Shown here one piece after another: positions 9,095-23,873 of a DNA stretch of 29,491 nt. Origin of the DNA: Pyrinomonadaceae bacterium (GTDB lineage Bacteria > Acidobacteriota > Blastocatellia > Pyrinomonadales > Pyrinomonadaceae); assembly GCA_035575965.1 (NCBI GenBank), contig DATLXD010000114.1:1-29491 (forward strand), given 5' to 3'. The translations under genes were made by a program, and so were the position numbers. Each line of letters begins with the position of its first letter. Position 1 is the first letter of the stretch. Below the pieces are notes generated by a model. The model was given only the letters and a program-made list of their open reading frames with translations, ran no database searches and was not told where the DNA came from.

Positions 9095-10183
9095 TCATCC
9101 GTTTGACGAATTTAATCGATGAGGTTGCCGAGTATTTACTAATTTTGCCGCCAGCTTTATCGCCGCCTTCATACTTGAGGCGTCGGCTAAATTTTTCCCC
9201 GCAATATCGAAAGCCGTACCGTGGTCAACCGATGTCCTGACGAGCGGTAAGCCAAGCGTTACATTGACCGATGCGCCGAATGACAAGCATTTAACGGCAA
9301 TCGTCGCTTGGTCGTGGTAACAGGAAATAATCGCGTCGAATTCGCCTTTAAACCCGCGCAGAAAAATTGTGTCGGGCGAATATGCGCCGGACACATCTAT
9401 GCTAAAATTTTCTCGACATTCCGTAATTGCCGGAATTATTTCATCTGCTTCTTCCGTCCCGAACATTCCGCCTTCGGAAGCGTGCGGATTAAGACCGGCA
9501 ACCGCGATTTTTACATCTTTTTTTAATAATTTTGATAACGATTGATGGGAAAACTTAATCAGTTCCACCAAGTTTTCTTTTTTTATCAAATCAATCGCGT
9601 CGCGGAGTGAAATGTGCGTCGAAAGCAGAATGACGCGCAAGTTTTCCGCAAAAAAACTCATCGCAAATTCTTTTGAATTGGTTAAATGTGCAAGAAATTC
9701 CGTGTGTCCGGGAAAATCATAGCCGCCGAGCGCAATCGCCCGTTTGCTAATCGGCGCAGTGCAAATCGCATCGATTTTTTCCTCGCGCCAGAGCCGGACG
9801 GCTGTTTCGATATATTCGGCGGCGGCGCGTCCAGTTACGCCTGAATCTTCGCCTAAAATTACTTCGTCCGGGATATTGCGTAAATCGTGAACGGCAATTT
9901 GGTTTGAATTGTGCGGAAGATTTTTCGTCGCTTCAACGAAGTCAAACTCTATTCCTAAATCTCGCGCCGTTTTTTTTAAATACGCGGCATCGCCGATAAC
10001 GACGGGCGAGCAAAATTTTTTTATTTTATCGTCGGCAAGTGCTTTGAGCGTGATTTCCGCCCCGATTCCGGCGGCATCGCCCATCGTTATGCCGACTCGC
10101 GTCGAAGATTTATCCAGATTAGATTTTGAGATATTTTCGTTTTGTTTGACATTCACCGAATCATTTTGACATAAAAGCTGCAA
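9095..10183 (-). CDS. pdxA: 4-hydroxythreonine-4-phosphate dehydrogenase; start uncertain, probably further downstream
   Basis: GITMGDAAGIG, THISL, NPHASE, YHDQ and RTSVDHGTAFDIAG motifs. Confidence 0.93.
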   Translation of the reverse strand: MQLLCQNDSVNVKQNENISKSNLDKSSTRVGITMGDAAGIGAEITLKALADDKIKKFCSPVVIGDAAYLKKTARDLGIEFDFVEATKNLPHNSNQIAVHDLRNIPDEVILGEDSGVTGRAAAEYIETAVRLWREEKIDAICTAPISKRAIALGGYDFPGHTEFLAHLTNSKEFAMSFFAENLRVILLSTHISLRDAIDLIKKENLVELIKFSHQSLSKLLKKDVKIAVAGLNPHASEGGMFGTEEADEIIPAITECRENFSIDVSGAYSPDTIFLRGFKGEFDAIISCYHDQATIAVKCLSFGASVNVTLGLPLVRTSVDHGTAFDIAGKNLADASSMKAAIKLAAKLVNTRQPHRLNSSNG

Positions 10184-10237
10184 TAATACCCAAAATACTC
10201 AAAAAATTATTTTTGTATTTTGTGTATTATTGCAGCT
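10176..10237. repeat. 23-bp inverted repeat (1 mismatch, 16-nt spacer) downstream of ftsZ
   Basis: AGCTGCAATAATACCCAAAATAC (10176-10198) versus GTATTTTGTGTATTATTGCAGCT (10215-10237). Confidence 0.9.
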
Positions 10238-10259
10238 AATCATTTTCCTGCTTTAAACT

Positions 10260-11402
10260 TTAATCTGCTTGGCGACGAATAAACGTGGGAACGTTTATAT
10301 CTTCGTCTTTTTTTACGTCTAAAGGATTGTATGTCGGCGGCATCGTCGCGCCGCCCGCAGCCGCTTGTGCGGTCTCCGCAAACGGTGATAACGATGTCGC
10401 TGTTTGTTTGTAATTGTCAAAGCCGGTGGCGATGACGATTATCTTCACATCGTCTTCCATATCTTCGTCAAAGACCGTTCCAAAAATGATATTCGCGTCT
10501 TCATCGGCTTCTTGATAAATCAGTGAAATCGCTGCCTCAATCTCGTCGAGCGGCATATTTTTTGAACCTGTGATATTGATAAGTGCGCCACGCGCTCCCT
10601 TGATTGAATTTTCTTCGAGCAGTTTAGAATCAATCGCCGCCTTCATCGCGCTGATTGCCGCGCCGTCGCCTGTTCCGTGTCCAATACCCATCAGAGCCAC
10701 GCCCATTCCCTGCATTACTGATTTAACGTCCGCGAAATCGAGATTGATAACGCCTGAAACGGTTATCAAATCGGAAATGCCTTGAACGGCTTGCAGCAAA
10801 ATATCGTCCGCGCGGCGAAACGCATCCATAATCGAAATTTTTTCTTCGACTTCTTTGAGTTTTGAATTCGGAATCGTAATAATCGTGTCGACACAGCCGC
10901 GCAGTTCCGCGAGTCCTTCTTCGGCTTGCCGCATACGCTTTTTGCCTTCGACCGTGAAGGGCTTGGTCACGACGGCGACGGTCAATGCGCCGAGTTCGAT
11001 GGCAAGGGCGGCAATAACCGGCGCGGCGCCCGTTCCCGTTCCGCCACCGAGTCCGGTGGTCACGAAAACCATATCCGAGCCTTCCAGAACGTCCATTATC
11101 TTATCGGTGTCTTCAATCGCTGCCTGCCGCCCGATTTGTGGGTTTGCGCCCGCGCCGAGACCGCGCGTTAATTGGCTTCCAAGCTGAATCTTTATCGGAG
11201 CTTTGGAATCGTTTAAGGCTTGCACATCCGTGTTCACCACAATAAACTGCACGCCTTTGATGCCTGCCTCAATCATTCGATTAACCGCATTGCTTCCGCC
11301 GCCGCCAACGCCGATGACGATGATTTTTGCACCCGTTACAACCTCGTCGGCAAACTCCAGCATCATTCCTTTATTTTTTATTTGAAGACCGTTCGTAATC
11401 AT
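10260..11402 (-). CDS. ftsZ: Cell division protein FtsZ
   Basis: [13 protein letters not shown], tubulin signature [16 protein letters not shown]-terminal peptide [12 protein letters not shown]. Alternative start at 11366 or 11363. Confidence 0.98.
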
Positions 11403-11549
11403 TATTTATAATTCCTTTTGAAGAAAATTTAATTGTTAAAACTATTTTTATGAATTTCCGAGAGATTTTGCGATTTCAACAAGATATTGTGTCTATGGCG
11501 AAAAAGCATACAACGATTTGGGGTAAAAAATCCAGCCCAAATGTTAAAT

Positions 11550-12788
11550 TTATCTAAATTTATCTCGAAAATTTTCAAACCACTCGGCAACCTTGCGCGA
11601 CGGCGACTTTCCGCCTTGATTTTGCTCGCGGATTTGTAAGCGCATCGAAGCAAGTGCCAGCCCGCAAGCCGTCGCCCATTCGGGACTTTGCACTTCGTCG
11701 AGCAGCCCGCCGAAATGTTTTTGTTCCAAAAAACCGAGCCGTGTCGGCGCGTCGAAAACCTGTTCGGCAATCTCCACCATTCCGCGATTAAGTGAGCCGC
11801 CGCCGGTCAACACCACGCCGCTCGAGATTTGCCCGCGAATATTAAAAACTTCGTGCGCGATGTGCTGCAAAAGCTCGACGGCGCGCGGCTGCATAATGTC
11901 GCACAAAATTTCCTTTGATAGTTGGCGCGTTTCCTGTCTGCCGACCGGTGTAACCTCAATAATTCCTTGTCTTTCTTCTGCACTCATCAAAAATCCGGCA
12001 ACGCATCCGTAATGATGTTTGATTCGTTCGGCTTCGGGAATCGAAACGCGCAAACCGACGGCGATGTCCTTGGTAAAGTGCATTCCGCCGAACGGAAAAA
12101 CAATTGTGTGCTGTACCGCACCGCGACCGAAAATCATCAAGCTCGTAAGTTCTTCACCGATATTAACGAGAGCGCAGCCGTATTCCTTATCATCGTCAGA
12201 AAGCGTGCTGTTTGCTGCCGCGAGCGGCTCGAGCATCATTCTTTCTTCTTCGAGATCGGCTTGATGAATAGCTTTAACGATATTTTGCCTGCCCGCGCTT
12301 GGACTCGTGATAACGTGAATGCGGCTTTCCAGCCGCGACCCGCGCATTCCAATCGGTTCGACAATTCCGTCCTGCCCGTCAATAATAAATTCCTGCGGCA
12401 AGCGGTCGACGATTTCCCAACCCGCCGGAAGCTGCATCGCGCTGGCGGATTCGACTGCGCGTTCGACATCTTCAGTCGTAATCTCGCGTCCCGCGCCGGC
12501 AACCGCGACGACACCGCTTTTGTTTTCGCCGCGCAGGTGTTCGCCCGAAAGATTGACCGTCGCCGTATGAATCGACAAACCGCTAACGCGCTCGGCTTCT
12601 TCGACGGCTTTTTTGATTGATTCGACAACCGCGTCGGTCGTGGTTACAATTCCGCGCCGCAATCCGCGAGATTCAGCCGTGCCGATACCGACAATATTCA
12701 TCATGCCGTTTTCGGACGCTTCTCCGATGACGCACCGAATTTTGCTCGTGCCGATGTCTAATCCGACTGCTTGTATTTCACGACTCAT
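11550..12788 (-). CDS. ftsA: Cell division protein FtsA
   Basis: GLDIGTSK, VVLTGGGS, C-terminal amphipathic KVAEWFENF; directly upstream of ftsZ. Confidence 0.97.
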   Translation of the reverse strand: MSREIQAVGLDIGTSKIRCVIGEASENGMMNIVGIGTAESRGLRRGIVTTTDAVVESIKKAVEEAERVSGLSIHTATVNLSGEHLRGENKSGVVAVAGAGREITTEDVERAVESASAMQLPAGWEIVDRLPQEFIIDGQDGIVEPIGMRGSRLESRIHVITSPSAGRQNIVKAIHQADLEEERMMLEPLAAANSTLSDDDKEYGCALVNIGEELTSLMIFGRGAVQHTIVFPFGGMHFTKDIAVGLRVSIPEAERIKHHYGCVAGFLMSAEERQGIIEVTPVGRQETRQLSKEILCDIMQPRAVELLQHIAHEVFNIRGQISSGVVLTGGGSLNRGMVEIAEQVFDAPTRLGFLEQKHFGGLLDEVQSPEWATACGLALASMRLQIREQNQGGKSPSRKVAEWFENFRDKFR

Positions 12789-12796
12789 TTATTTTC

Positions 12797-12843
12797 AATT
12801 ACGAATTAAGTCAATAATAATTGCTTAATCGTAATTCGTAATT
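12797..12843. repeat. Inverted TAATTCG-family heptamer arms at the ftsQ-ftsA junction
   Basis: AATTACGAATTA (12797-12808) is the exact reverse complement of TAATTCGTAATT (12832-12843). Confidence 0.75.
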
Positions 12844-12848
12844 TTCAT

Positions 12849-13676
12849 TTAGTTAACACGAAATTCAAATTTTTCTTTTTGACTGCTTAAATCAAGCGAT
12901 TTTACTTCCTTACCTTTTCCCGCTATTTTTTCCAGACCGGTTTGCAGGCGTTTGCCGAAATTCTCTGTGGATAAAATAATCGTTACCGCTTCGCCGGAAT
13001 CCTGCACAACTACTTGCGGTTCTTGCAAATCGGTTAAATCAACCGAATTGACACGCTTGGCAAGCTCGAAATTTTGCCATTCATCCAGCATTTTCATATA
13101 AATTTTCACTCGTTCCTGATTGTTTTTAATCGCTTTGTCCGTTTTATCTTCATTCCATCCGCGCAAAGCAAACGGCGGACGTTCATCGTTTTTTTCGACT
13201 GCACCGAGAATTACTGCGTCATCGTCCGCCCAAACGTTGCCGGAGCCTAGTTGCACGACGGCACGCGGCACGCGCTCGTTGACATCGACGCGAATACCGT
13301 CGGGCAAAACACGCGAAACGACGACTGATTTGACGAGCGTAAATTTTTCGATGCCGTCTTTAATCTCCTTTAAATCCGCATTCAAAACGCCGAGTTTTTC
13401 AGCCGAAGCGCGGGCGATTTTTTCAATATCTTCTTTTGGAATCTTGTTTATGCCGCGAATGTCAACGGTTTTTACATCGAAAAATGCCGCCGCTGTCCCC
13501 GTTCGGTAACCCATAAACAATAAAAAACCTAAACAAAACAAAATGCCTGCGCTAAAAACGAGCGGAACAATGAAGTTAGCCAATGTTCCAGAACTCCTTT
13601 TTCGGTTGGCAATCGTTCTGCTCGGTCTTTTTGAAGTCGTTCCTATTTTTCGGATTGTTCTTTTTTGTGTTGCCAT
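12849..13676 (-). CDS. ftsQ: Cell division protein FtsQ/DivIB
   Basis: Basic cytoplasmic N-terminus, one TM helix, POTRA-like segment (VKSVVVSRVLPDGIRVDVNERVP); position before ftsA. Confidence 0.9.
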   Translation of the reverse strand: MATQKRTIRKIGTTSKRPSRTIANRKRSSGTLANFIVPLVFSAGILFCLGFLLFMGYRTGTAAAFFDVKTVDIRGINKIPKEDIEKIARASAEKLGVLNADLKEIKDGIEKFTLVKSVVVSRVLPDGIRVDVNERVPRAVVQLGSGNVWADDDAVILGAVEKNDERPPFALRGWNEDKTDKAIKNNQERVKIYMKMLDEWQNFELAKRVNSVDLTDLQEPQVVVQDSGEAVTIILSTENFGKRLQTGLEKIAGKGKEVKSLDLSSQKEKFEFRVN

Positions 13677-13689
13677 AATTATTTGAAAA

Positions 13690-13756
13690 GACGCGGAGAA
13701 ACGGCGACGCGGCGATTTTTACTCTCCGTGTCCCCGTGTCCCCGTGTCTCCTTGTC
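13690..13756. repeat. Inverted octamer arrays spanning the murC stop codon
   Basis: GACGCGGA GAAACGGC GACGCGGC GA, loop TTTTTAC, then TCTCCGTG TCCCCGTG TCCCCGTG TCTCCTTG TC. Confidence 0.88.
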
Positions 13757-15128
13757 GCAAAGTTTCTAATATCTCATCGGAAAGTCGCGTGATGCTTCCC
13801 GCGCCCAAAGTTATAACCAAATCATCTGCCTGCAATTCCTCGGCGATTTGAGCGGCGGCATTATCAATTTCGCCGATATACCGCACGTTTTTATGACCGT
13901 ATTTTTTGATGTTCTCGGTCAAAATCTCGGCGGTTACGCCCTCGATCGACTGCTCGCTCGCCGCGTAAATATCCGAAACAAAAAGCACGTCGGCGTTATT
14001 AAAACAAAGCGCAAATTCGTCCATCAATTCCTGGGTTCTGGTGTAGCGATGCGGTTGGAAAACAACCACCGTCCGCTTGCCGCCCGAACCGTTTTTCGCC
14101 CCCGCGAGCGTTGCCGAAATTTCCGTCGGATGATGACCGTAATCGTCGATTACCGTGATACCTTTCGCTTCACCTTTGAATTGAAAACGGCGGTTGGCAT
14201 TCTTAAATTTAGTAAATGCTTCGGCGATTTTCTGGAACGGAACGTCAACTTCCAGCGCAACGGCAATGGAGGCTAAAGCATTATAGATATTGTGTTTGCC
14301 CGGAACAGGTAAGTTTATCTCGCCTAAAACTTCGGCGCCTTTCCAGACATTAAAAGCCGAGCCGAAATTATCGTTATAGCGAATGTTATGCGCTGAAACA
14401 TCGGCTTGCGCGGTCATTCCGTATGTAACGCGGCGGCGTTTGATGTTGGGAATAATAAGCTGAACATTCGGGTCGTCGAGACAGATGATGCACGCGCCGT
14501 AAAACGGAACTTTATTGACAAAATCCGTGAAACACTGCACCACGTCGTCCATTCCTTTGTAAGATTCCATATGTTCCTTATCAATGTTCGTCACGACGGA
14601 AACCGTCGGATTGAGCATCAAAAAAGAACGGTCGCTTTCGTCGGCTTCGGTTACAAACCAATCGCTCGTGCCGAGCTTCGCGTTTGAGCCGAGCGTGTCA
14701 ACCACGCCGCCGACAACCGTCGTGGGTTCCAATCCAGCGTGTCCTAAAATCGTGGCAATCATCGAAGTCGTCGAAGTCTTCCCGTGAGTTCCGGCAACCG
14801 CCACCGAATACGGCTTCAAAGTCATCAATTCGGCGAGCATTTCCGCACGCGGTATAACCGGAATTTTCCTTTCTTTGGCAATTACTACTTCTGGATTATC
14901 TTCCTTAACCGCCGATGAATAAACCACAACCTGCGCGTCGCCGACGCTTTCCGCCGCGTGTCCTTCGTAAATTTTAGCGCCGGCTTTTTCCAGTCGGTCG
15001 GTAATTTTCGATTTTTTCAAATCAGAACCTGAAACAGAGAATTCCAGATTGCACAAAACTTCGGCGATGCCGCTCATTCCGATGCCGCCGATACCGATAA
15101 AATGTATGTTTTTAACGTGCCGAAACAT
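13719..15128 (-). CDS. murC: UDP-N-acetylmuramate--L-alanine ligase
   Basis: HFIGIGGIGMSG, AGTHGKTSTT, EADESD, DDYGHHPTE and FQPHRYTRT motifs. Confidence 0.98.
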   Translation of the reverse strand: MFRHVKNIHFIGIGGIGMSGIAEVLCNLEFSVSGSDLKKSKITDRLEKAGAKIYEGHAAESVGDAQVVVYSSAVKEDNPEVVIAKERKIPVIPRAEMLAELMTLKPYSVAVAGTHGKTSTTSMIATILGHAGLEPTTVVGGVVDTLGSNAKLGTSDWFVTEADESDRSFLMLNPTVSVVTNIDKEHMESYKGMDDVVQCFTDFVNKVPFYGACIICLDDPNVQLIIPNIKRRRVTYGMTAQADVSAHNIRYNDNFGSAFNVWKGAEVLGEINLPVPGKHNIYNALASIAVALEVDVPFQKIAEAFTKFKNANRRFQFKGEAKGITVIDDYGHHPTEISATLAGAKNGSGGKRTVVVFQPHRYTRTQELMDEFALCFNNADVLFVSDIYAASEQSIEGVTAEILTENIKKYGHKNVRYIGEIDNAAAQIAEELQADDLVITLGAGSITRLSDEILETLRQGDTGTRGHGE

Positions 15129-15131
15129 TTC

Positions 15132-15186
15132 GATTTTGGATTTTGGATTTTGGATTTTTCAAATTTGCAATCTCAACCACAAAATC
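15132..15186. repeat. GATTTTG x3 array with a degenerate inverted arm at the murG-murC junction
   Basis: GATTTTG x3 (15132-15152) plus GATTTT; counter-arm CAAATTT GCAATCT CAACCA CAAAATC (15160-15186). Confidence 0.85.
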
Positions 15187-15211
15187 AAGTTTTCCTTTTA
15201 CAAAACAATCT

Positions 15212-16285
15212 CTATCTTGCCAATTCTTCTATTAAATTAACTGTCGTTTCCGCCGCGTCCCGTTTCGCCAAATTTTTTGCGGAAGTTTCCATCTCCGTAA
15301 TTTTTTCGGGCTTTTCAATCAATTCAACGATTTCTTTTGCCAGACTTTCACCCGATAAATCTTTTTGTAAAATTATTCGCGCCGCGCCTTTACTGACTAA
15401 CGCTTCGGCGTTTTTGCGTTGATGGTCGTCGGCGGCAGTCGGAAGCGGAATCATAATCGCGGCTTTTCCAGCCGCCGCAACTTCCGCGCAAGTCGTCGCG
15501 CCCGCACGACAAATTATCAAATCCGTTTCGGCAAATTCGGAAACCATATCGGAAATATAACGGCTGACATCGGCATTTTTCCAATCGTTTTCCGCATAAC
15601 CTTTTTCAACTGTTTCAAAGTCCGATTCGCCCGTTTGATGCGTGATTTGCAATCGGTTTTTGAACGATTGCAAATGTTTTAAACTTTCAACCACCGCCGA
15701 ATTAATCGCTCTTGCGCCTTGCGAGCCGCCGAAAACGAGCAGGGAAAATTTTTCATTTTCTCTTTGTTTCTGCAGAATGTCAAAAAACTCTTTTCGCACC
15801 GGATTTCCCGTAACAATGCCTTTCTTGCCGAAAAACTCGACGGCTTCTTCAAAGGTCAAAGCGGCTTTTGTCACAAACGGCGCAAGCCTTCGATTTGTAA
15901 AACCGGGAAGCGCGTTTGAGTCCATAACCAGCGTCGGAACACGCATAAGGCTCGCCATTAAAAGAACCGAACCCGAAACATAACCGCCTGCGCCAACAAC
16001 AACTTCAGGCTGAAAATCTTTTATCAATCTACGCGCTTCGAGAAAACTCTTCGGCAAAATCAACAAACCTTTTATTTTTCCAAGCAGTCCGACATTTTTC
16101 AGTCCCGCGCTGTCTATCAAAGCAAGCTCAAATCCGTTGTCGGGAACAATTTTCGTTTCAAGCCCGCGAGCCGTGCCGACGAACAAAACTTTCGACTCAG
16201 CGTCACGCCGCACGATTTCTTTGGCGACGGCGATTCCCGGGTAAATATGTCCGCCGGTTCCGCCGGCGGCTATGATTATTCTCAT
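15212..16285 (-). CDS. murG: Undecaprenyl-PP-MurNAc-pentapeptide N-acetylglucosamine transferase
   Basis: GGTGGHIYP, GNPVR, GGSQGA, RAGATT and DHQRKNA motifs. Confidence 0.98.
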   Translation of the reverse strand: MRIIIAAGGTGGHIYPGIAVAKEIVRRDAESKVLFVGTARGLETKIVPDNGFELALIDSAGLKNVGLLGKIKGLLILPKSFLEARRLIKDFQPEVVVGAGGYVSGSVLLMASLMRVPTLVMDSNALPGFTNRRLAPFVTKAALTFEEAVEFFGKKGIVTGNPVRKEFFDILQKQRENEKFSLLVFGGSQGARAINSAVVESLKHLQSFKNRLQITHQTGESDFETVEKGYAENDWKNADVSRYISDMVSEFAETDLIICRAGATTCAEVAAAGKAAIMIPLPTAADDHQRKNAEALVSKGAARIILQKDLSGESLAKEIVELIEKPEKITEMETSAKNLAKRDAAETTVNLIEELAR

Positions 16286-16302
16286 TTATCTTGCTTAGTA
16301 AA

Positions 16303-16363
16303 GACGCGGCGATAGGGACACGGCAACGCGGTGAAAATCTCCTTGTCTCTGCGTCTCTGTGTC
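16303..16363. repeat. Inverted octamer arrays at the ftsW-murG junction
   Basis: GACGCGGC GATAGG GACACGGC AACGCGGT GA, then AAA, then TCTCCTTG TCTCTGCG TCTCTGTG TC. Same family as 13690-13756. Confidence 0.85.
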
Positions 16364-16378
16364 GTATTTTCAAATCAC

Positions 16379-17584
16379 TCACTTCAATCCCGTTTGCCCG
16401 CGCTTTCTTCTACGCGGCGGCGTTTCAAATTCGTCATTTTTAACATCAACTTTCAAACCAACAGTTCCGGCATACTGCGATATATTCAACAAAATCCCGA
16501 CGGCAAAAAGTGTAACGACGATTGACGAGCCGCCGTAGGAAATAAAGGGAAGCGGAATACCTTTTGCCGGAAGAATCGAAATTACGACCGAGATATTAAA
16601 AAGTGCCTGTACGATAATTCCCGTAATAATTCCGATGCCGAGTAGCATTCCGAAACGGTCGGGCGCGCGCAAAGCTGCTCGCGCGCCGCGCCACAACAGA
16701 AAACCGAAAGCCAGAACGACCGTCAGAGTTCCGATTAAACCGAGTTCTTCGCCGACGACCGCGAAAATAAAATCCGAATACGGATACGGCAAGTAAAAAA
16801 GTTTTTGCCGACCTTTTGCAAAGCCTTCGCCCATAATTCCGCCCGAACCGATGGCGTAAAGTCCTTGCACGACTTGATAACCGCCGTCGCCGGAGTTTTC
16901 CCACGGATTTATAAAAGCGAAAAGTCGCTTCATTCGCCACGGCGAAAGGATGAGAAATAAAATTCCGACGAGCAGCAGACTTCCGATTGTCAATGTAATG
17001 TGCTTCAATTTCGCGCCTGCCGCAAAATAAACCGTTACAAAAATCGCGCACAAAACCATCGTCGTTCCTAAATCCGGCTCAGCCATTACCAACGCGCCTA
17101 AACAGCCCAAAACCAGCCCGCACGGCAAAACCGTTTCCCTTAAATCTTCGACCGTATCTTCGTTTTTCGTCAAAAAATAAGCAAGAAAAATCGGCAGAGC
17201 GACCTTGGCGATCTCCGAGGGCTGAAATGACATTCCCGAATAACGCACCCAACGCCGCGCGCCGTTAATAGGCGGAGATCCGAAAACCGCGAGCAGCAAA
17301 ATTGCCGTAATCCCTAAAATTCCATAAACGATTGTTTTGCTTTCATAGCGATGATAATTTATTTTGCTGGTCAGATACATCGCCGCCAGACCCAATAAAG
17401 TAAAGCCTGACTGTTTATAAAAATACGTGAACTGGCTTTCGCCCTGCGTTTCCCTGAGCGCAATCATCGCCGACGCGCTGTAGACCATAATCGAGCCGAA
17501 CACGGCAAGACCGGCGGCAACCGCAAACATTAACCAATCTATGCGAAGTTTTTTTACCATTCTTAAAATCAATCCGAAGTTCAA
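16379..17584 (-). CDS. ftsW: SEDS peptidoglycan polymerase FtsW; probable start ATG 17560
   Basis: GARRW, FQPSEIAK, EPDLGT, GYQVVQG, SDFIFAVVGEELG and PFISYGGSS motifs. Confidence 0.96.
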   Translation of the reverse strand: MNFGLILRMVKKLRIDWLMFAVAAGLAVFGSIMVYSASAMIALRETQGESQFTYFYKQSGFTLLGLAAMYLTSKINYHRYESKTIVYGILGITAILLLAVFGSPPINGARRWVRYSGMSFQPSEIAKVALPIFLAYFLTKNEDTVEDLRETVLPCGLVLGCLGALVMAEPDLGTTMVLCAIFVTVYFAAGAKLKHITLTIGSLLLVGILFLILSPWRMKRLFAFINPWENSGDGGYQVVQGLYAIGSGGIMGEGFAKGRQKLFYLPYPYSDFIFAVVGEELGLIGTLTVVLAFGFLLWRGARAALRAPDRFGMLLGIGIITGIIVQALFNISVVISILPAKGIPLPFISYGGSSIVVTLFAVGILLNISQYAGTVGLKVDVKNDEFETPPRRRKRGQTGLK

Positions 17585-17652
17585 TGTCCAATGTTTAATA
17601 TTTTAGTTTGTTCCGCAGACTGACCTTGGGCTTTGGACTTTAGACTTTGGAC
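17573..17652. repeat. Inverted CAAAGTC/GACTTTG heptamer arrays across the murD 3' end
   Basis: CGAAGTT CAATGTC CAATGTT (17575-17595) faces GACCTTG GGCTTTG GACTTTA GACTTTG GAC (17622-17652). Confidence 0.8.
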
Positions 17653-18993
17653 GGCATTTTTGAAAAAAATGCCCCTTTCCTCAAACGAATTGAACATATC
17701 GAAACTTGCACACGCCGGTGCAAGCAAAACTGCGTCGCCATTTTCGGCATTTTCAAAACTTTTCAAAACTGCGCCCGTCATCGAATCGGCACGAACGATT
17801 TCAGCATAATTTTTCATTTGGCTTTCGATATTGTCGGCATCTTCGCCAATCAAAACGAGTTTGCGAACATTTTCCTTTATCAAACGGACGAGCGGTGCAT
17901 ACGGCGAATTTTTTCCGCGCCCGCCCAAAATTAAAATGATTTTGCCGTCCGTTTCCGCTAACGCTTCGAGTGCTTTTTGGGTCGCGTCAACGCTCGTCGC
18001 TTTGGAATCGTTATAAAATTTTACGCCTTCAATTTCCGTTACAAATTCCAAGCGATGTTCAACGGCTTTAAAGTTTCTCAAAGTTTCGCGCATCGAATCG
18101 GGCGATGCGCCGCACGCGAGTCCTGCCGCAAGACTCGCCAAAACATTTTGAACATTGTGAACACCGCGCAAATTCATTTCATCTCGAAAAGCCAAAACTT
18201 TTTCCTTACCGTTTGCCCGACAAACAAGTTCTCGACCGCGCAGAAACAAACCTTCGTCTAGTTCCTTTACGGTTGAAAATAAAACGATATTTGCCCGCAA
18301 ATTTTTTGCCCAACTCGCCGTGATTTCGTCGTCGGCGTTTAGAATCGCAAGATCGTCCGCCGTTTGATTCATAAAAAGACGATGTTTAGCGGCGGCGTAA
18401 TCGGTAAAGAAATCGTAGCGGTCAAGATGATTCGGCGTAACATTCAAAGCAACCGCGACTGCGGGGCGAAAATTCTTAATCGTTTCGAGTTGAAAACTCG
18501 AAAGCTCGCAAACCGTCCAGGTTTCATCGGTCGAGCTTTCTGCCAAACTTATCAAAGGCGTTCCGATATTTCCGCCGACTTGCGCGGTAACACCGGCATT
18601 TTGCAAAAGTTCGCCAATTAAAGTCGTCGTCGTCGTCTTACCGTTCGAGCCTGTAATTCCGACGATTTGACCTTTCAAAAATCTATAAGCTAACTCGACT
18701 TCGCCGATAACTTCACCGTCTTTGCGTTCGACATAACGCGCTGGAACTGTATTTGTCGGAACGCCCGGCGAAATTACAATCAAATCAATCTGGTCAAGCA
18801 ACCAAGAGGGAATTTGCCCGTCGAGAAGTCCGATTTTTTTTTCTTTCAAAGAGCGTGCTTCTTCCGCCCAATCCGCAATCGACTTTTTGTCGTGAAGCGC
18901 GACCGTCGCACCACGCTTCACCAAAAATTCGGCGGAAGCGATGCCGGATTTTCCCGCGCCTAAAACTAAAGTTTTTTTGCCTTGAAGTTCCAA
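17581..18993 (-). CDS. murD: UDP-N-acetylmuramoyl-L-alanine--D-glutamate ligase
   Basis: GAGKSG, GITGSNGKTTTT, ELSSFQL, NDSKAT and PACASFDMF motifs; TTG start. Confidence 0.97.
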   Translation of the reverse strand: MELQGKKTLVLGAGKSGIASAEFLVKRGATVALHDKKSIADWAEEARSLKEKKIGLLDGQIPSWLLDQIDLIVISPGVPTNTVPARYVERKDGEVIGEVELAYRFLKGQIVGITGSNGKTTTTTLIGELLQNAGVTAQVGGNIGTPLISLAESSTDETWTVCELSSFQLETIKNFRPAVAVALNVTPNHLDRYDFFTDYAAAKHRLFMNQTADDLAILNADDEITASWAKNLRANIVLFSTVKELDEGLFLRGRELVCRANGKEKVLAFRDEMNLRGVHNVQNVLASLAAGLACGASPDSMRETLRNFKAVEHRLEFVTEIEGVKFYNDSKATSVDATQKALEALAETDGKIILILGGRGKNSPYAPLVRLIKENVRKLVLIGEDADNIESQMKNYAEIVRADSMTGAVLKSFENAENGDAVLLAPACASFDMFNSFEERGIFFKNAVQSLKSKAQGQSAEQTKILNIGH

Positions 18994-18997
18994 TTTC

Positions 18998-20152
18998 TCA
19001 CCTTAATTTCAATGTCGATAAACTCAACAACGCGAAAAGAATCCCCACAATTACGAATCGAAAAACAATCTTCGGCTCTTTCCAGCCAGCCAGCTGAAAA
19101 TGATGATGCAGCGGCGATTGCAGGAAAATGCGCTTGCCAACTCCGGTTTTCGGATTCTTTGTCAATTTGAAATATGAAACCTGCAGCATCACCGAAAGGG
19201 CTTCGATAATAAAAACGCCGCCGATAAATGGTAAAAGAAATTCCTGTTTGGTCAAAATCGCTACCGTTCCGAGCGCACCGCCGATTGCCAGACTTCCGAC
19301 ATCGCCCATAAAAATCTGCGCGGGCGGCGCATTATACCACAAAAATCCGAGACTTGCGCCGACCATCGCGCCGCAAAAAACCGTCAATTCAGCTGCTTCC
19401 GGTTTGTGCGTGATGTCCAGATATTCAGCCCAGCGACGGTCGCTCGAGACATACGTCAATGCAGTCAAAGCCGACATCGCAATAAACGTGATGCTCGTCG
19501 CTAAGCCGTCCATTCCGTCGGTCAGATTCACCGCGTTTGACGAACCCAAAAGAACAAAAATGATAAAAAGCAAATATGGAAGTGGGCTAATCCAGCTTAC
19601 TGCATCGGTATAATTCGCAATTGCAGTGGCTTTAAAAAACGGAATACTTAGATTCCACGGGTAATTGGCGAAATAATAAAGACAACACCAGACAATAATT
19701 GCAGTTAATAACTGACCCAAAATTTTTTGCCAGCCCGTCAAACCCAGACTGCGCTTTTTGACGATTTTGATGTAATCGTCGGCAAATCCGATGATGCCGA
19801 ACGCAGTCGTCGCGCCCAAAGCCAACCACAAATAAAGACTGTCGAGCCGCGCCCAAAGAAGCGTCGAAAGAAAAACCGCGCCGAGAATTAAAACTCCGCC
19901 CATCGTCGGCGTGCCTTTTTTTGCTTGATGTTCCTCCGAAAGCTCTTCACGGATTTCTTGCCCGTATTTAAGTTCGGCAAGTTTCTTTATCACTTTGCCG
20001 CCAAACAATAGCGAGATAAGCAGCGCGGTAATCGTCGCCCAAGCCGTGCGAAACGTGAGATATTGAAAGACGTTCAAGCCTTTGTAGAAATACGACTCGC
20101 TGCTCGCGCTGTATTGTTTGAAAGCAATTTGATATAAAAGGTAATAAAGCAT
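18998..20152 (-). CDS. mraY: Phospho-N-acetylmuramoyl-pentapeptide transferase
   Basis: [35 protein letters not shown] and SPLHHHF motifs. Confidence 0.98.
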
Positions 20153-20158
20153 CTGTTA

Positions 20159-20270
20159 AATTTTGGATTTTAGATTTTGGGTTTGTCCGCCGTCCTTTGT
20201 TTTCCTTTGCCTGAAATTTGAAATCTGCAATCAAAATTAACATCTGCGTTTGTCCGTGTGCATCTGTGTT
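20159..20270. repeat. Composite array at the murF-mraY junction (inverted heptamer arms plus decamer x3)
   Basis: AATTTTG GATTTTA GATTTTG (20159-20179) versus TGAAATT TGAAATC TGCAATC AAAATT (20212-20238); then CATCTGCGTT TGTCCGTGTG CATCTGTGTT (20241-20270). Confidence 0.85.
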
Positions 20271-20271
20271 T

Positions 20272-21726
20272 TCATTTTTCTAAATTAAAATCTTCCAACA
20301 ATTTCTCGATAACTCGTTCCGTCCGCACGCCGCGGGAACCTTTGACCAAAACCAAATCGCCCGCACTTATTTCATTTGCGAGAAATTCGCCAGCTTCGGT
20401 CGAGTCTGCAAAAAATTTTGTTTTGCTCAAACCGTTTTCCTTTGCGCTTTCCGTCAACTCTTTTGCCAAGCCGCGCACGCCGATTAAAAAATCAATGCCG
20501 CTCGACGCAAATTGTTTGCCCGTTTCGCGGTGAATTTCCTTTTCCGTTTCGCCGAGTTCGAGCATTTCACCTGCGACGACGATTTTGCGTTTCGCGGTTT
20601 TTCCGTTGTCAACCAAAGTTTTGACCATTTCCAGAAGTGCCGCCGGATTTGAATTATACGAATCGTTAATGATTGTAAAACCTTCGGCGAAATGCAAAAC
20701 TTCTCCGCGCTGCGCGGGCGGCGCAATCGTTTCGAGAGCTTCTGCGATTTCCCGCGCCGACATTCCGAAACCGAATCCGACAGCCGAAGCCGCGAGCGCA
20801 TTTAAAACATTGTGCCGTCCCGAAAGTTGCAACCTGACATCGGCTTTTTCATTCGGCAAATTCAGAGCGAAATTTGTTTCACCGAATCGTTCCATTTCAA
20901 TTTCACTTGCCGAAACGTCTGCTTTTTGCTCAATTCCGAAAGTTATAGTTTTACCTTTATGAAGTTGGCGCATCGCTAAAACGCGAAAATCATCGGCGTT
21001 TAAGATTGCCGTGCCTTCCGGTTTCATTCCTTCGACGAGTTCGGCTTTGGCTTTTGCAACATTTTCAATCGAGCCGAGATGTTCAACGTGAACGGGCAAC
21101 ACGTTCAGTTCGACGGCAAAATCCGGCGGCGTGATTCCGCACAAACGCGCTATTTCATTCGACGGCGTTGACATTCCCATTTCCAAAACGGCAGCGTCAA
21201 AACTTTTATCTGCGGCGAGCTTTAAAACCGTCAAAGGATGTCCGAGACCGTTATTGTAATTTTTGATGTTTCGCAAAATTTTGCGTCCGGAACTTTGCAA
21301 AACGTGAGCGGTTAATTCTTTTGCCGTCGTTTTGCCCGCGCTTCCCGTAATCGCTACGACGGGCTTGTTCCATTCAAGATAAACGCCGTGCGCCAGATTC
21401 TGCAAAGCCAAAATCGCGTCGCGGACAAAAATTAAGCGGTCTCGAAATTCTTCTAAAACCGCTCGGTGTTCCGCAAATCTGTCGGGACGCGCCACGCAAA
21501 ACGCCGCGCCTCGTTCAAATGCCGACGGAATGTATTGGTGCGAATCTTGGAAATTGCCGTTGAAGCAGTTGTTTTGATATTCGGGCTGCGAGAAGGCAAA
21601 AAAAACTTCGCCTGCCCGGACTTCACGCGAGTCAATCGCAAACGATTGAACTTCCCGTCCAAGCAGAGCGGGATTGAGTTTGGAAGCGTCCGCGTCCATA
21701 TATTTTATGACGGTTTCTAGTTTCAA
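20272..21726 (-). CDS. murF: UDP-N-acetylmuramoyl-tripeptide--D-Ala-D-Ala ligase
   Basis: IDSREV, AITGSAGKTTAKE, NYNNGLG, LEMGM, NDSYNSNP, GEMLELG and VLVKGSRG motifs. TTG start overlaps the ftsI TGA. Confidence 0.95.
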   Translation of the reverse strand: MKLETVIKYMDADASKLNPALLGREVQSFAIDSREVRAGEVFFAFSQPEYQNNCFNGNFQDSHQYIPSAFERGAAFCVARPDRFAEHRAVLEEFRDRLIFVRDAILALQNLAHGVYLEWNKPVVAITGSAGKTTAKELTAHVLQSSGRKILRNIKNYNNGLGHPLTVLKLAADKSFDAAVLEMGMSTPSNEIARLCGITPPDFAVELNVLPVHVEHLGSIENVAKAKAELVEGMKPEGTAILNADDFRVLAMRQLHKGKTITFGIEQKADVSASEIEMERFGETNFALNLPNEKADVRLQLSGRHNVLNALAASAVGFGFGMSAREIAEALETIAPPAQRGEVLHFAEGFTIINDSYNSNPAALLEMVKTLVDNGKTAKRKIVVAGEMLELGETEKEIHRETGKQFASSGIDFLIGVRGLAKELTESAKENGLSKTKFFADSTEAGEFLANEISAGDLVLVKGSRGVRTERVIEKLLEDFNLEK

Positions 21727-23873
21727 TTTACAACACGCGGTCTTTCGGTTGACGATTTATTTTTTGTATCGCCTTTCGACTTTTCTCTATCCAAAATCGG
21801 TTTCGGTTTTCCCGAATTTTTCTCGTCCTTCGGAGACTTATTCGATGATTTACCGGTTTCCGCTTTGATTTCTTTCGGCGGTTTGCCGGGAACGGCTTTT
21901 TCTCTTTCGACAACCTTTTCCTTTTGAGATTTCCTTTCCGGGTTTTCAGTCGCCTTCCTGTCGGTTTTTTCGACCGATTTGGTTTCAGAATTTTTTGTCG
22001 AAGCCGTTTGGGAATCTAAATTCATCGCCGAATCCGTTATCGCGTCCGGTTCGCTCGGAACTTCTTCCTGCGCCGCCGCTTCTGCTGCTGCGATTTCCTC
22101 TTGAGTCGGCATATCGTGCGGCACGTTTAATTCAGGCAGAATTTGCTGTGCGATTTCGCGGAAAACCGGCGCGGAAACTTGTCCGCCGTTGCGCAGCGCG
22201 CCTCTCGGTTCATCCATCACGACTGCAATAACCACAGCCGGATTTTCAGCCGGAGCAAAGCCAACAAACGACGAAGTGTATTTGCTTCCGCTGACTCTCT
22301 TTATTTTAGGGTCGTATTTCCAAGCCGTTCCGGTTTTTCCAGCAGATGAATAGCCGTCGAGCGCGGCTTCTTTTCCTGTTCCGGTCACCACCACTTCGCG
22401 CAGCATTCTGCGCAGGCTGGCGGCGGCTTCCGCGCTGACGACCGTTGTCTTTTCAGGCTCGGCGGCGGAAATCACTATCCCGTCCGCTTGACGAATTTCT
22501 TTTATAATGTGCGGGCGAACTCTCACGCCGTCGTTGGCAATAGCCGCAAAAGCCAGAGCGGTTTGCAAAGAGGTTACGCCGATTTCGTAACCGATTGACA
22601 TCGAAGCCAGCGAATCGCCTTTCCATTTTTCCGTCGGGCGCACCAGTCCGCGCGTTTCCGCCGGAAGCTCGATGCCGCTTACCTCGCCGAAACCGAACTG
22701 ACGAATGTAATTGCTGAATCTGTTTTCGCCGATTTTCAAGCCGGTTTTAATCGCGCCGAGATTGCTGGAAATCGCCATAGCCTTCGTATAAGAAATCGCC
22801 TTGCCGCAATGCTTGTCTTTAAATTCGTGTTTGCCGACTTCGATAGTTCCGTTGCCGCAGCTAAACCACTCGTCAGGCTTAATCAGTTTTTCCTGCAACG
22901 CCGCCCCGTAAGTTACGAGCTTAAAGATCGAACCGGGCGCGAAGCTGCTCTGCACCGCTTTACTCTTATAATTTTCGGTTGGAAAATCGGCGAAATTATT
23001 CGGGTCAAAGCTTGGATAATCCGCCATCGCCAGAATCTCGCCCGTTTTCGGATCAAGCACGATTGCCGTTCCCGATTTCGCGGCGGCGGCTTTGACACCA
23101 GACTTGAGTGCCTCTTCGACTTTGTATTGAATCGAATGGCTAATCGTCAAAACAATGTCTTTCGGCGGTTCGCGCTCTTCTTCGGTTTCAGATTCGTCAT
23201 AAACTCTGCCGAGACGGTCGCGGTCTTGCCATTTCTTGACTGCCGCGCCGCGCAGAAGTGTTTCCTGCGATTGCTCGATTCCGGCTAAACCAACGTCGTC
23301 GGAATTACTGAAACCGATAACTTGCGCTGCCAAATTTTTGTAGGGATAACCGCGTTTTTGTTCATCCTTCCAGTGCAAGCCCGCCAATCGCGGCTCGTCA
23401 TACTTTTTCAAATCAACGTCTTTTAATTCGTCGTTTAATTTCTCGAACGTTTCTTCGTCAACCTTTCGCGCCAGCCAGACAAATCTTTTGTCGCTTTGTT
23501 TGGCTGTCTGCAATTCTCTGAAAACATCGCTCGGTTTAAGTTTAAGTGCGGCGGCGATTTTTTTCGCAGTTCCTTCGACATCTTCGATTTCGGCTGGGTC
23601 GGCAAACAGAGACTTTGTTTCGACGCTCATTGCCAGGGCGCGTTCCGAGCGGTCATAAATCGTGCCGCGCAGCATTTTAGTTTTTATCTGGTCGCGCCTT
23701 TGAACTTGCGCTCGGTCGCGCAGCCATTCGCTTTGGTTGACTTGCAGATGAACCAGCCGCACACCGATTGCGCCAATCCACAAAATAAAAAACGCGACAA
23801 TCAGCATAAAGCGCGTAAATACCGTCTGCATCGGATTTTTTTTGCGTTTGATTTTTTTTAAGCGTTTTGCCAT
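21723..23873 (-). CDS. ftsI: Class B penicillin-binding protein FtsI (PBP3) with long charged C-terminal tail
   Basis: TM anchor, RGTIYDR, catalytic SIFK (SxxK), SSN (SxN) and KTG motifs. Confidence 0.96.
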   Translation of the reverse strand: MAKRLKKIKRKKNPMQTVFTRFMLIVAFFILWIGAIGVRLVHLQVNQSEWLRDRAQVQRRDQIKTKMLRGTIYDRSERALAMSVETKSLFADPAEIEDVEGTAKKIAAALKLKPSDVFRELQTAKQSDKRFVWLARKVDEETFEKLNDELKDVDLKKYDEPRLAGLHWKDEQKRGYPYKNLAAQVIGFSNSDDVGLAGIEQSQETLLRGAAVKKWQDRDRLGRVYDESETEEEREPPKDIVLTISHSIQYKVEEALKSGVKAAAAKSGTAIVLDPKTGEILAMADYPSFDPNNFADFPTENYKSKAVQSSFAPGSIFKLVTYGAALQEKLIKPDEWFSCGNGTIEVGKHEFKDKHCGKAISYTKAMAISSNLGAIKTGLKIGENRFSNYIRQFGFGEVSGIELPAETRGLVRPTEKWKGDSLASMSIGYEIGVTSLQTALAFAAIANDGVRVRPHIIKEIRQADGIVISAAEPEKTTVVSAEAAASLRRMLREVVVTGTGKEAALDGYSSAGKTGTAWKYDPKIKRVSGSKYTSSFVGFAPAENPAVVIAVVMDEPRGALRNGGQVSAPVFREIAQQILPELNVPHDMPTQEEIAAAEAAAQEEVPSEPDAITDSAMNLDSQTASTKNSETKSVEKTDRKATENPERKSQKEKVVEREKAVPGKPPKEIKAETGKSSNKSPKDEKNSGKPKPILDREKSKGDTKNKSSTERPRVVN

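Follow-up and report, generated by a model that had tools for sequence, protein, structure and literature searches.

Palindromic elements with short-tandem-repeat arms at gene junctions of a Pyrinomonadaceae dcw cluster, probable gene-less relatives of four-helix-bundle cassettes

Introduction

The closest described counterparts of the structures considered here are the intervening sequences (IVS) of 23S rRNA in Coxiella burnetii, Leptospira, and Xanthomonas, in which a gene of the four-helix-bundle (4HB) family S23p/PF05635 lies within inverted repeats whose tandem heptamers (GACAGAT in Coxiella) vary in copy number; RNase III cleaves the stem, and a selfish or mobile nature has been proposed for the element (PMC4990558). 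Here, we describe tandem arrays of 7–10 nt units, with intact or decayed inverted partners, at seven gene junctions of the dcw cluster in a 29,491-nt stretch of DNA from a Pyrinomonadaceae metagenome-assembled genome (MAG), hereafter the window. The feature that this genus has in common with the 23S IVS is a same-family 4HB gene between long inverted repeats with tandem heptamers. The differences are the location between protein genes, the mostly gene-less state, the many arm families, and additional cargo (a PIN-domain toxin–antitoxin pair and a GxxExxY gene). All elements studied are situated between or inside protein-coding genes and none in helix 25 or 45 of 23S rRNA, the rRNA genes of the MAG not having been looked at.

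In Xanthomonas, convergent inverted pairs of GGGAATC arrays, 70–75 per genome and preferentially of about four units, occur mainly between co-directional open reading frames (ORFs) near stop and start codons, and their copy number varies by species (Rehm et al., 2015; PMC4692102). There, a single G-rich unit is used, which was interpreted as forming quadruplexes, and no link to cargo was described, whereas the units here are AT-rich or mixed, form 101 families, and have cargo-bearing versions. Geobacter metallireducens carries several classes of 3–5 tandem 7–9 nt units that form pairs, one member on each strand and the distance between them variable, at dozens of sites between and within genes; a global regulator was suggested to bind them (Aklujkar et al., 2009; PMC2700814). 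The Geobacter system likewise combines many motifs with one architecture, a likeness that we draw from the published description only; cargo and turnover were not analyzed there. A preliminary description of the window, made from the sequence alone, had contrasted it with known repeats in which a REP family uses one consensus; that known repeat systems use a single one is contradicted by the several paired classes of Geobacter.

The TAACTGA repeats of Beggiatoaceae, cyanobacteria, and Bacteroidetes are intergenic heptamer arrays a few nucleotides before start codons, often without a Shine–Dalgarno (SD) motif; their patchy distribution suggests horizontal spread, and 169 of them are direct and one indirect (PMC4679880). 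These arrays and the short tandemly repeated repetitive (STRR) arrays are almost all direct and unpaired, whereas 40% of the arrays are paired here. The units of STRR1–3, which occur in heterocystous cyanobacteria, are CCCCAGT, TTGGTCA, and CAACAGT; none of the three is among the 30 commonest 7-mer unit classes of the present host, a soil acidobacterium that FtsZ-based retrieval places among the Pyrinomonadaceae. Small dispersed intergenic palindromes are also known as MITEs (miniature inverted-repeat transposable elements), as repetitive extragenic palindromes (REPs) with their REP-associated tyrosine transposases (RAYTs), and as foldback elements, the last being eukaryotic, with arms of tandem short repeats and a variable or cargo-bearing center. 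Unlike MITEs, the elements described here show neither target duplications nor a common internal sequence; unlike REP/RAYT systems, they have no linked transposase or RAYT.

Inverted heptamer arrays and multi-class paired arrays (Xanthomonas, Geobacter), arrays before start codons, and a 4HB gene in the IVS stem are already in print. No paper joining them was found, and literature searches returned none that ties 4HB or GxxExxY genes to heptamer arms. Why heptamers are over-represented in bacteria and what the widespread "four helix bundle" (23S IVS protein) family is for have been asked for decades, usually as separate questions. New here are the acidobacterial genus, the toxin–antitoxin cargo, a series of filled, short-loop, and bare sites in the dcw operon, and a statistical match between the arms of cassettes and of gene-less hairpins. 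On balance, we regard the junction structures as probable intact or decayed copies of small palindromic insertion elements that are dispersed over the genome and are gene-less members of cargo-cassette families.

Arrays at the dcw junctions

The MAG (label G000) comprises 2.37 Mb in 409 contigs, is 81.5% complete, and has 45% G+C; the window is its contig C114. Congeneric genomes are labelled G0xx and their dcw loci L0xx. Genus-wide searches covered 31 congener genomes, the unpublished G016 and G018 entering only genus-wide counts, and dcw loci were compared in 15 congeners and in the partial dcw contig of G024 (16 loci). After ftsI, Pfam and NCBIfam assign murF, mraY, murD, ftsW, murG, murC, ftsQ, ftsA, ftsZ, and pdxA, in this order on the window's minus strand; the names given in the preliminary description to the genes from murF to pdxA were right.

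Tandem Repeats Finder (TRF) and direct reading confirm an array of a 7–10 nt unit at each of the seven junctions named there; the accompanying claim, that each array faces an inverted array of the same unit, stands in part. Junction folds were scored as RNA fold z values against 200 dinucleotide shuffles on both strands, the plus strand of the window being antisense to the genes. Three junctions (ftsZ–pdxA, ftsQ–ftsA, and murC–ftsQ) are robust on both strands. Two (ftsW–murG and murD–ftsW) beat the shuffles on the antisense strand only, many pairs there being G-U on the antisense and A-C on the sense strand. The remaining two (murG–murC and murF–mraY) fold no better than shuffles: the array is intact, its partner is decayed, and the intact (AAAATCC)n ends 3 nt upstream of the start codon. 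The elements, all at junctions of minus-strand genes, are listed below; sense and antisense refer to those genes.

10176–10237, ftsZ–pdxA: hairpin with a stem of 22–23 bp (arms 10176–10205 and 10210–10237) and a weak 8–9 nt periodicity of the CAAAATAC type; −29.3 kcal/mol; z −10.1 sense, −9.3 antisense.
12797–12843, ftsQ–ftsA: hairpin of the AATTACG/CGTAATT family, about 10 nt upstream of the ftsA ATG; z −5.3 sense, −4.7 antisense.
13688–13758, murC–ftsQ: hairpin of the GACGCGG/GACACGG octamer family, with the murC stop codon (13719–13721) in the loop; z −5.1 sense, −4.6 antisense.
15130–15189, murG–murC: element of the GGATTTT family with an intact array (15130–15159), which is (AAAATCC)4 on the sense strand and 3 nt from the murC ATG, and a decayed partner (15160–15189); z −0.8 sense, −1.1 antisense.
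16300–16364, ftsW–murG: imperfect hairpin whose octamers are of the GACGCGG/GACACAG type; z −0.8 sense, −3.1 antisense.
17575–17651, murD–ftsW: degenerate element of the GGACTTT (AAAGTCC) family, array 17622–17652, partner 17575–17599; z +0.8 sense, −3.4 antisense.
20156–20241, murF–mraY: element of the GGATTTT family, arm 20156–20185 (AAAATCY units on the sense strand, 3 nt from the mraY ATG), decayed partner 20210–20241; z −0.2 sense, −1.6 antisense.
20242–20270, beside the preceding element: decamer array of the ACACAGATGC type, 3 units, unpaired, abutting the murF stop codon.

With a heptamer-armed hairpin cassette taken as inverted 7–10 nt arrays, with or without a small gene, in a stop-to-start spacer, three of the seven dcw sites are clear examples and four are degraded ones; 239 strict hairpins genome-wide and the cargo-bearing copies have the same build. 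The family at ftsQ–ftsA has 11 strict hairpins genome-wide and is also seen at this junction in four congeners. The murG–murC array is present at the same junction in seven congeners besides the window, and the start-proximal murF–mraY array, whose arm fits the GGATTTT-family consensus ATTTTGGATTTTAGATTTTGG, is common to about ten. Units of the same type as the murC–ftsQ octamer (GACGCGG) border 4HB genes of G019 and G011; at murC–ftsQ, one mismatch (A-C sense, G-U antisense) is repeated in every unit. Decamer arrays of the ACACAGATGC type number about 40 genome-wide, some in paired hairpins; the one in the window is indeed unpaired, as had been noted.

Two elements extend into coding sequence. 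The murC–ftsQ arm 13722–13758 codes for the last 12 residues of MurC (tail RQGDTGTRGHGE), while the murD–ftsW array 17622–17652 is read as the MurD tail VQSLKSKAQGQ, its partner spanning the murD stop codon; the likely ftsW start is an ATG near 17560. These repeat-encoded C-terminal tails of MurC and MurD vary among congeners.

Arrays occupy seven of nine junctions of the dcw cluster, as compared with 26.7% of co-directional junctions in the genome (binomial P = 0.002), a value that is post hoc because the region was picked for having arrays. The absence of SD motifs at the junctions, pointed out earlier, is true and ordinary here: an SD-like motif precedes only 19–28% of ATG-start ORFs in this genome, and leaders are A-rich.

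As an Rfam RNA, the ftsZ–pdxA stem gave only a sub-threshold chance match to a miRNA. Two candidate strain polymorphisms from the soil metagenome run X5, namely one contig that skips 12794–12846 at ftsQ–ftsA and CCCCATC units at 13726–13755 in the murC–ftsQ arm, were not solid enough and were left unused.

Families of inverted arrays in the genome

Period 7 leads the TRF output for this genome (731 of 2221 rows), and neighboring arrays built of one unit and no more than 100 nt apart are inverted in 99 cases and direct in two. Pairing was scored by local alignment (score of at least 28, partner within 150 nt), with direct orientation and reversed sequence as controls. An inverted partner was found for 334 of 845 arrays (40%), as against 18 in the direct and 29 in the reversed-sequence control; the genome-wide scan proposed in the preliminary description thus bears out inverted pairing in excess of what slippage would give.

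The 239 strict hairpins, whose arms have a median length of 26 nt and whose loops one of 22 nt, fall into 101 unit families. They are intergenic or overlap gene ends, with medians of 3 nt past the stop codon and 9 nt ahead of the next start. Divergent spacers hold 11% of the hairpins and 25% of intergenic bases. By junction, hairpins are found at 26.7% of co-directional, 31% of convergent, and 26% of divergent ones, so that the suspected enrichment at co-directional junctions is not seen.

Within a family, the arrangement of the arms is fixed: 88 of 93 co-directional copies, in families with at least two such copies, share a single arrangement. We had also considered this as a polarity relative to genes and dropped it, since a palindrome has equal arm order on both strands and the count says nothing on the polarity of transcription. 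The GGATTTT arms have the terminal consensus ATTTTGGATTTTAGATTTTGGATT with a variant AGA unit at a fixed position, seen at about 17 loci, the murF–mraY arm of the window among them, and in addition in two cargo cassettes described below. A 23-mer of this family (up to two mismatches) has 3–217 copies per genome in 31 of 31 congeners, as compared with 0–9 for the reversed sequence; exact copies exceed 50 in G011, where many form plus/minus pairs spaced by 50–140 nt. Unit order is mirrored only moderately between arms (unit-permutation test, mean z 0.89). The single arrangement per family, the terminal consensus, and the occurrence of the same arms around genes indicate families of dispersed elements, not accidents of single loci.

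Cargo genes between the arms

Three cassettes were found in this genome. In contig C85, a TIGR02436 4HB gene lies within GGATTTT arms, 5 nt past tRNA-SeC; in C363, a small ORF and a PIN-domain toxin, forming a toxin–antitoxin (TA) pair, lie within GGATTTT arms; and in C198, a GxxExxY/PDDEXK_3 gene lies within arms of another family. The link of such arrays to 4HB and GxxExxY genes, put forward for other bacteria in the preliminary description, is correct. Of the 18 4HB genes in G019 and G011, 16 are enclosed by tandem arrays in inverted orientation, and every paralogue has a unit of its own; proteins that share an arm type are 89–95% identical between the two genomes, and identity is 32–68% for paralogues whose arms differ. 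Long inverted arms enclosing an S23p/PF05635 4HB ORF are thus seen in C85, in these 16 cases, and at mraY–murD of G024, while the seven dcw copies of the window have no ORF.

Cassettes and gene-less hairpins have arm classes in common: of 13 classes seen in cassettes, nine recur as hairpin families in this genome (hypergeometric P = 5e-9; with AT-rich classes alone as the reference, P = 2e-7), the GGATTTT and GGACTTT types of the dcw cluster being among them. Across genomes, the 4HB count correlates with the arm count (rho 0.67), which is only suggestive, since the genomes are kin and hence not independent.

Several other loci were inspected. A second 4HB gene (C200:5070–5550) is broken by a frameshift or a TAG codon; no arms flank it, although a complete hairpin of the CGAATAG type lies upstream. 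In C404:1181–2505, inverted AAAATGG arrays separated by 1262 nt enclose the genes of an anti-sigma factor and an antagonist, which may be either cargo or framed by two half-elements. Longer inverted pairs that enclose ribosomal protein genes, an ABC transporter, or a 297-aa gene were rejected as cargo, each being two separate junction hairpins.

Filled, short-loop, and bare sites in congeners

Three orthologous sites show filled, short-loop, and bare states. The TA site is filled with genes in five genomes (this one, G014, G022, G003, and G046) and decayed in G041. In seven congeners, it keeps the same arms, including the inner GGATTGGCAA/TTGCCAATCC extension, around a short loop; in G011, part of the cassette leader is retained around a loop of only 80–100 nt; and in G023, a hairpin of another family is nested between remnants of the old arms. 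Because the short-loop copies have the arms and leader of the cassette, short-loop hairpins can be deletion derivatives of cargo cassettes. At the tRNA-SeC site, the 4HB cassette is present in five genomes, G006 has a bare 12-nt spacer, G009 (the closest relative of the window) has a different hairpin, and a second clade has an unpaired AGGATGA array.

The third site, mraY–murD, belongs to the dcw cluster itself. In G024, a 134-aa 4HB gene lies here within GGTTTTT/GGTCTTT arms, ending 5 nt short of the murD ATG; in G011 and G008, hairpins with short loops and arms of that family occupy the junction, and a 65%-identical 4HB protein with GGTTTTT arms is encoded at an unrelated locus in G011. The junction is bare in the window and G015 (4-nt stop-to-start spacer) and, with a slightly longer spacer, in G007 and G002, and it carries five different families in other species. 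The ftsW–murG junction is bare in five congeners, lacks an array in one more, and has at least seven families among the others, while the conserved 150-nt spacer between ftsA and ftsZ has an array in only one of 14 genomes read (G013). Over the 15 congeners, the dcw junctions are highly dynamic both in occupancy and in family. Orthologous cassettes retain their unit across about 20% divergence of the flanks, and hence separate insertions or replacements explain different families at one junction better than drift of the unit does. The alignment of relatives suggested earlier thus revealed cargo at a dcw junction (the 4HB gene of G024), but not at those seven junctions that have arrays in the window.

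Some junctions contain further genes. Between ftsZ and pdxA, a gene of about 90 aa related to Hfq (PF21979, 30 bits) occurs in L006, L007, L008, L010, L012, and L003 (12511–12771); it is missing in the window (10184–10262) and its nearest relatives, and in G011 only its 3′ end is left, directly past the hairpin, as if the rest had been removed by an element-associated deletion. Between murD and ftsW, an ORF of about 150 aa with a lipoprotein-like signal peptide and no Pfam family is seen in L006:4724–5184, L008:4742–5236, and L010:8370–8842, truncated in G019 (L004:4758–5028), and absent from the window. Both were considered as cargo and rejected, being ordinary genes with separate hairpins alongside. 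In G019, the ftsQ–ftsA and murD–ftsW junctions (L004:9871–10039 and L004:4758–5028) carry a non-tandem palindrome, GACTGGAGCGCAA...TTGCGCTCCAGTC (−81 to −89 kcal/mol), which is a separate REP-like family.

Origin of the junction hairpins

Two readings had been offered in the preliminary description: footprints of small cargo cassettes that target gene ends, or hairpins that tune processing and stoichiometry of the dcw transcript. The former is largely supported. At the level of genome and genus, arm families bracket 4HB genes, the PIN pair, and the GxxExxY gene, and filled and bare sites are seen; in the dcw cluster, cargo is found at one junction only, and that junction is bare in the window. 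The insertion-element explanation that we prefer runs as follows. An element consists of two mirror-image short tandem arrays of 7–10 nt units as arms; many families coexist, the arm unit defining the family and the arrangement being constant within it. Within the genus, families bracket small cargo, mainly 4HB genes (TIGR02436/PF05635) and also the TA pair and the gene of the GxxExxY nuclease fold, with each 4HB paralogue keeping its own arm unit. This architecture, the families, the tie to cargo, and the presence or absence of elements among species are shown by the data. In the short spacers from a stop codon to the following start, elements would be acquired, lost, or exchanged, and deletion of the cargo would leave a short-loop hairpin. 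As the families bracket cargo and the cargo can be deleted, the dcw hairpins would be gene-less members of the cassette families. Judged from sequence comparison, the elements appear to move; repeated independent occupancy suggests a preference for gene ends; and most dcw copies would be neutral passengers. The cargo genes are selfish-looking. By analogy with the 23S IVS, a long perfect stem of 20 bp or more in mRNA is a plausible RNase III substrate, and the A-rich arm that survives ahead of mraY and murC may provide an unstructured leader, similar to what has been proposed for TAACTGA repeats (PMC4679880).

A number of observations weigh against this explanation. Adjacent direct repeats of 2, 3, and 4 nt, as expected of a target-site duplication, flank 33, 8, and 1 of 235 elements, as compared with 29, 9, and 2 in a shifted control. 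Among 49 loops of at least 45 nt, no blastn match with E < 1e-3 was obtained, and loops gave no tblastn match to the 4HB protein. Searches of the 81.5%-complete MAG identified no mobilizing enzyme: no reverse transcriptase was detected, and the contig of the single IS200-like Y1 transposase gene (PF01797, C187:118–435) has no strict hairpin and no tandem array in 1 kb around the gene, so that the search for a RAYT or reverse transcriptase flanked by the same units, proposed earlier, came out negative. One intact and one broken 4HB gene stand against 101 families in this genome, 65 of which are singletons, and the correlation of 4HB and arm counts is weakened by kinship. None of the seven array-bearing junctions of the window was seen filled in the 16 congener dcw loci or in the 4HB match list of 31 genomes, and presence and absence among species could also stem from loss.

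Some of the same observations would suit an origin in place, in which slippage builds an array, an intrastrand template switch inverts a copy, and concerted evolution alters the unit, with no mobility and with cargo being incidental. Among long simple repeats, heptamers rank first in many bacteria and have been ascribed to slippage (Mrazek 2007, as cited in PMC4679880); target duplications are lacking, loops are unrelated, singleton families abound, unit order is only moderately mirrored, and the change repeated in every unit at murC–ftsQ indicates homogenization within an arm. We nevertheless consider this origin unlikely, given a 23-nt arm with its variant unit in a fixed position at dozens of loci (and in more than 50 exact copies in G011), a 70-fold range of copy number among congeners, one arrangement per family, and the coincidence of 4HB-cassette and gene-less-hairpin arm classes far above chance; fast drift of the unit is also at odds with its retention in orthologous cassettes.

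Quite unlikely, in our estimate, is selection by the host for RNA elements in the dcw mRNA, i.e., processing sites, stabilizers, or attenuators that set protein ratios. Stems of 17–26 bp within a polycistronic unit, RNase III cleavage of the similarly built 23S IVS stems (PMC4990558), the scarcity of hairpins in divergent, promoter-bearing spacers, and the enrichment and heavy occupancy of the dcw cluster across the genus would all fit such a role. There is no strand signature, however: on the sense strand of 153 co-directional hairpins, G-U pairs number 156 and A-C pairs 154, and fold energies of sense and antisense strands do not differ (P = 0.19). Moreover, three of the seven dcw elements fold better antisense; the two elements common to most species have lost pairing and kept only the start-proximal A-rich arm; species at a single junction are bare or have 5–7 unrelated families; and the conserved ftsA–ftsZ spacer is almost free of arrays. 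The second of the two earlier readings is accordingly unsupported. As to termination, a consensus scan called intrinsic terminators at none of the seven sites, terminator-like sites number 16 as against 24.1 in shuffles, and the ftsZ–pdxA stem has only UUUAU downstream. The arrays might instead be binding sites of host proteins, either of a global regulator on paired sites or of S1, Csp, or Csr proteins on arrays before start codons, with the hairpin being incidental. The pre-start (AAAATCC)n is kept at mraY and murC in 8–11 genomes, the window included, while the partner arm decays; most genes lack an SD motif and have A-rich leaders; and proposals of this kind are in print for Geobacter (PMC2700814) and Beggiatoaceae (PMC4679880). 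Yet 101 unit families in one genome cannot all suit one protein, array presence and unit vary freely between species at the same gene, and no regulon-like pattern was seen, although none was specifically tested for; we judge this explanation very improbable.

There is also a wider proposal that we regard as possible but doubtful: 4HB cassettes and gene-less hairpins would be one undescribed class of mobile elements, preferring stop–start spacers, in which each 4HB paralogue would recognize the arms of its own family, as a transposase does its ends, and promote their spread or retention, and of which the 23S IVS and bacterial heptamer repeats would be special cases. For the questions of heptamer repeats and 4HB function, the genus offers a compact test bed, with one operon, shared by over 30 species genomes, in which junctions may be bare or hold short hairpins or a 4HB cassette with the same arms, and with arm families ranging from 3 to more than 200 copies per genome; rates of gain and loss, target preference, and any protein–arm specificity become directly measurable. 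For annotation, the elements account for the variable C-terminal tails of MurC and MurD and for broken assemblies, and hairpins of these families should not be read as terminators or riboregulators.

Neighboring genes and other repeats of the window

Two genes lie upstream of the array-bearing junctions:

20272–21726, minus strand: murF (TIGR01143, 351 bits).
21723–23873, minus strand: ftsI.

Outside the dcw cluster, a decamer array (CACAGATAAA) and a heptamer array (CAAAGAC) are found at 6163–6247, in frame within a 743-aa ORF (4576–6807). Four independent metagenome runs yielded contigs whose ends or cross-joins fall exactly at the GGATTTT and GGACTTT arrays of the window (15125–15160, 17652, and 20159), and word depth rises tenfold there. 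Since contigs break at the arrays, these repeats probably account for the MAG being in 409 pieces.

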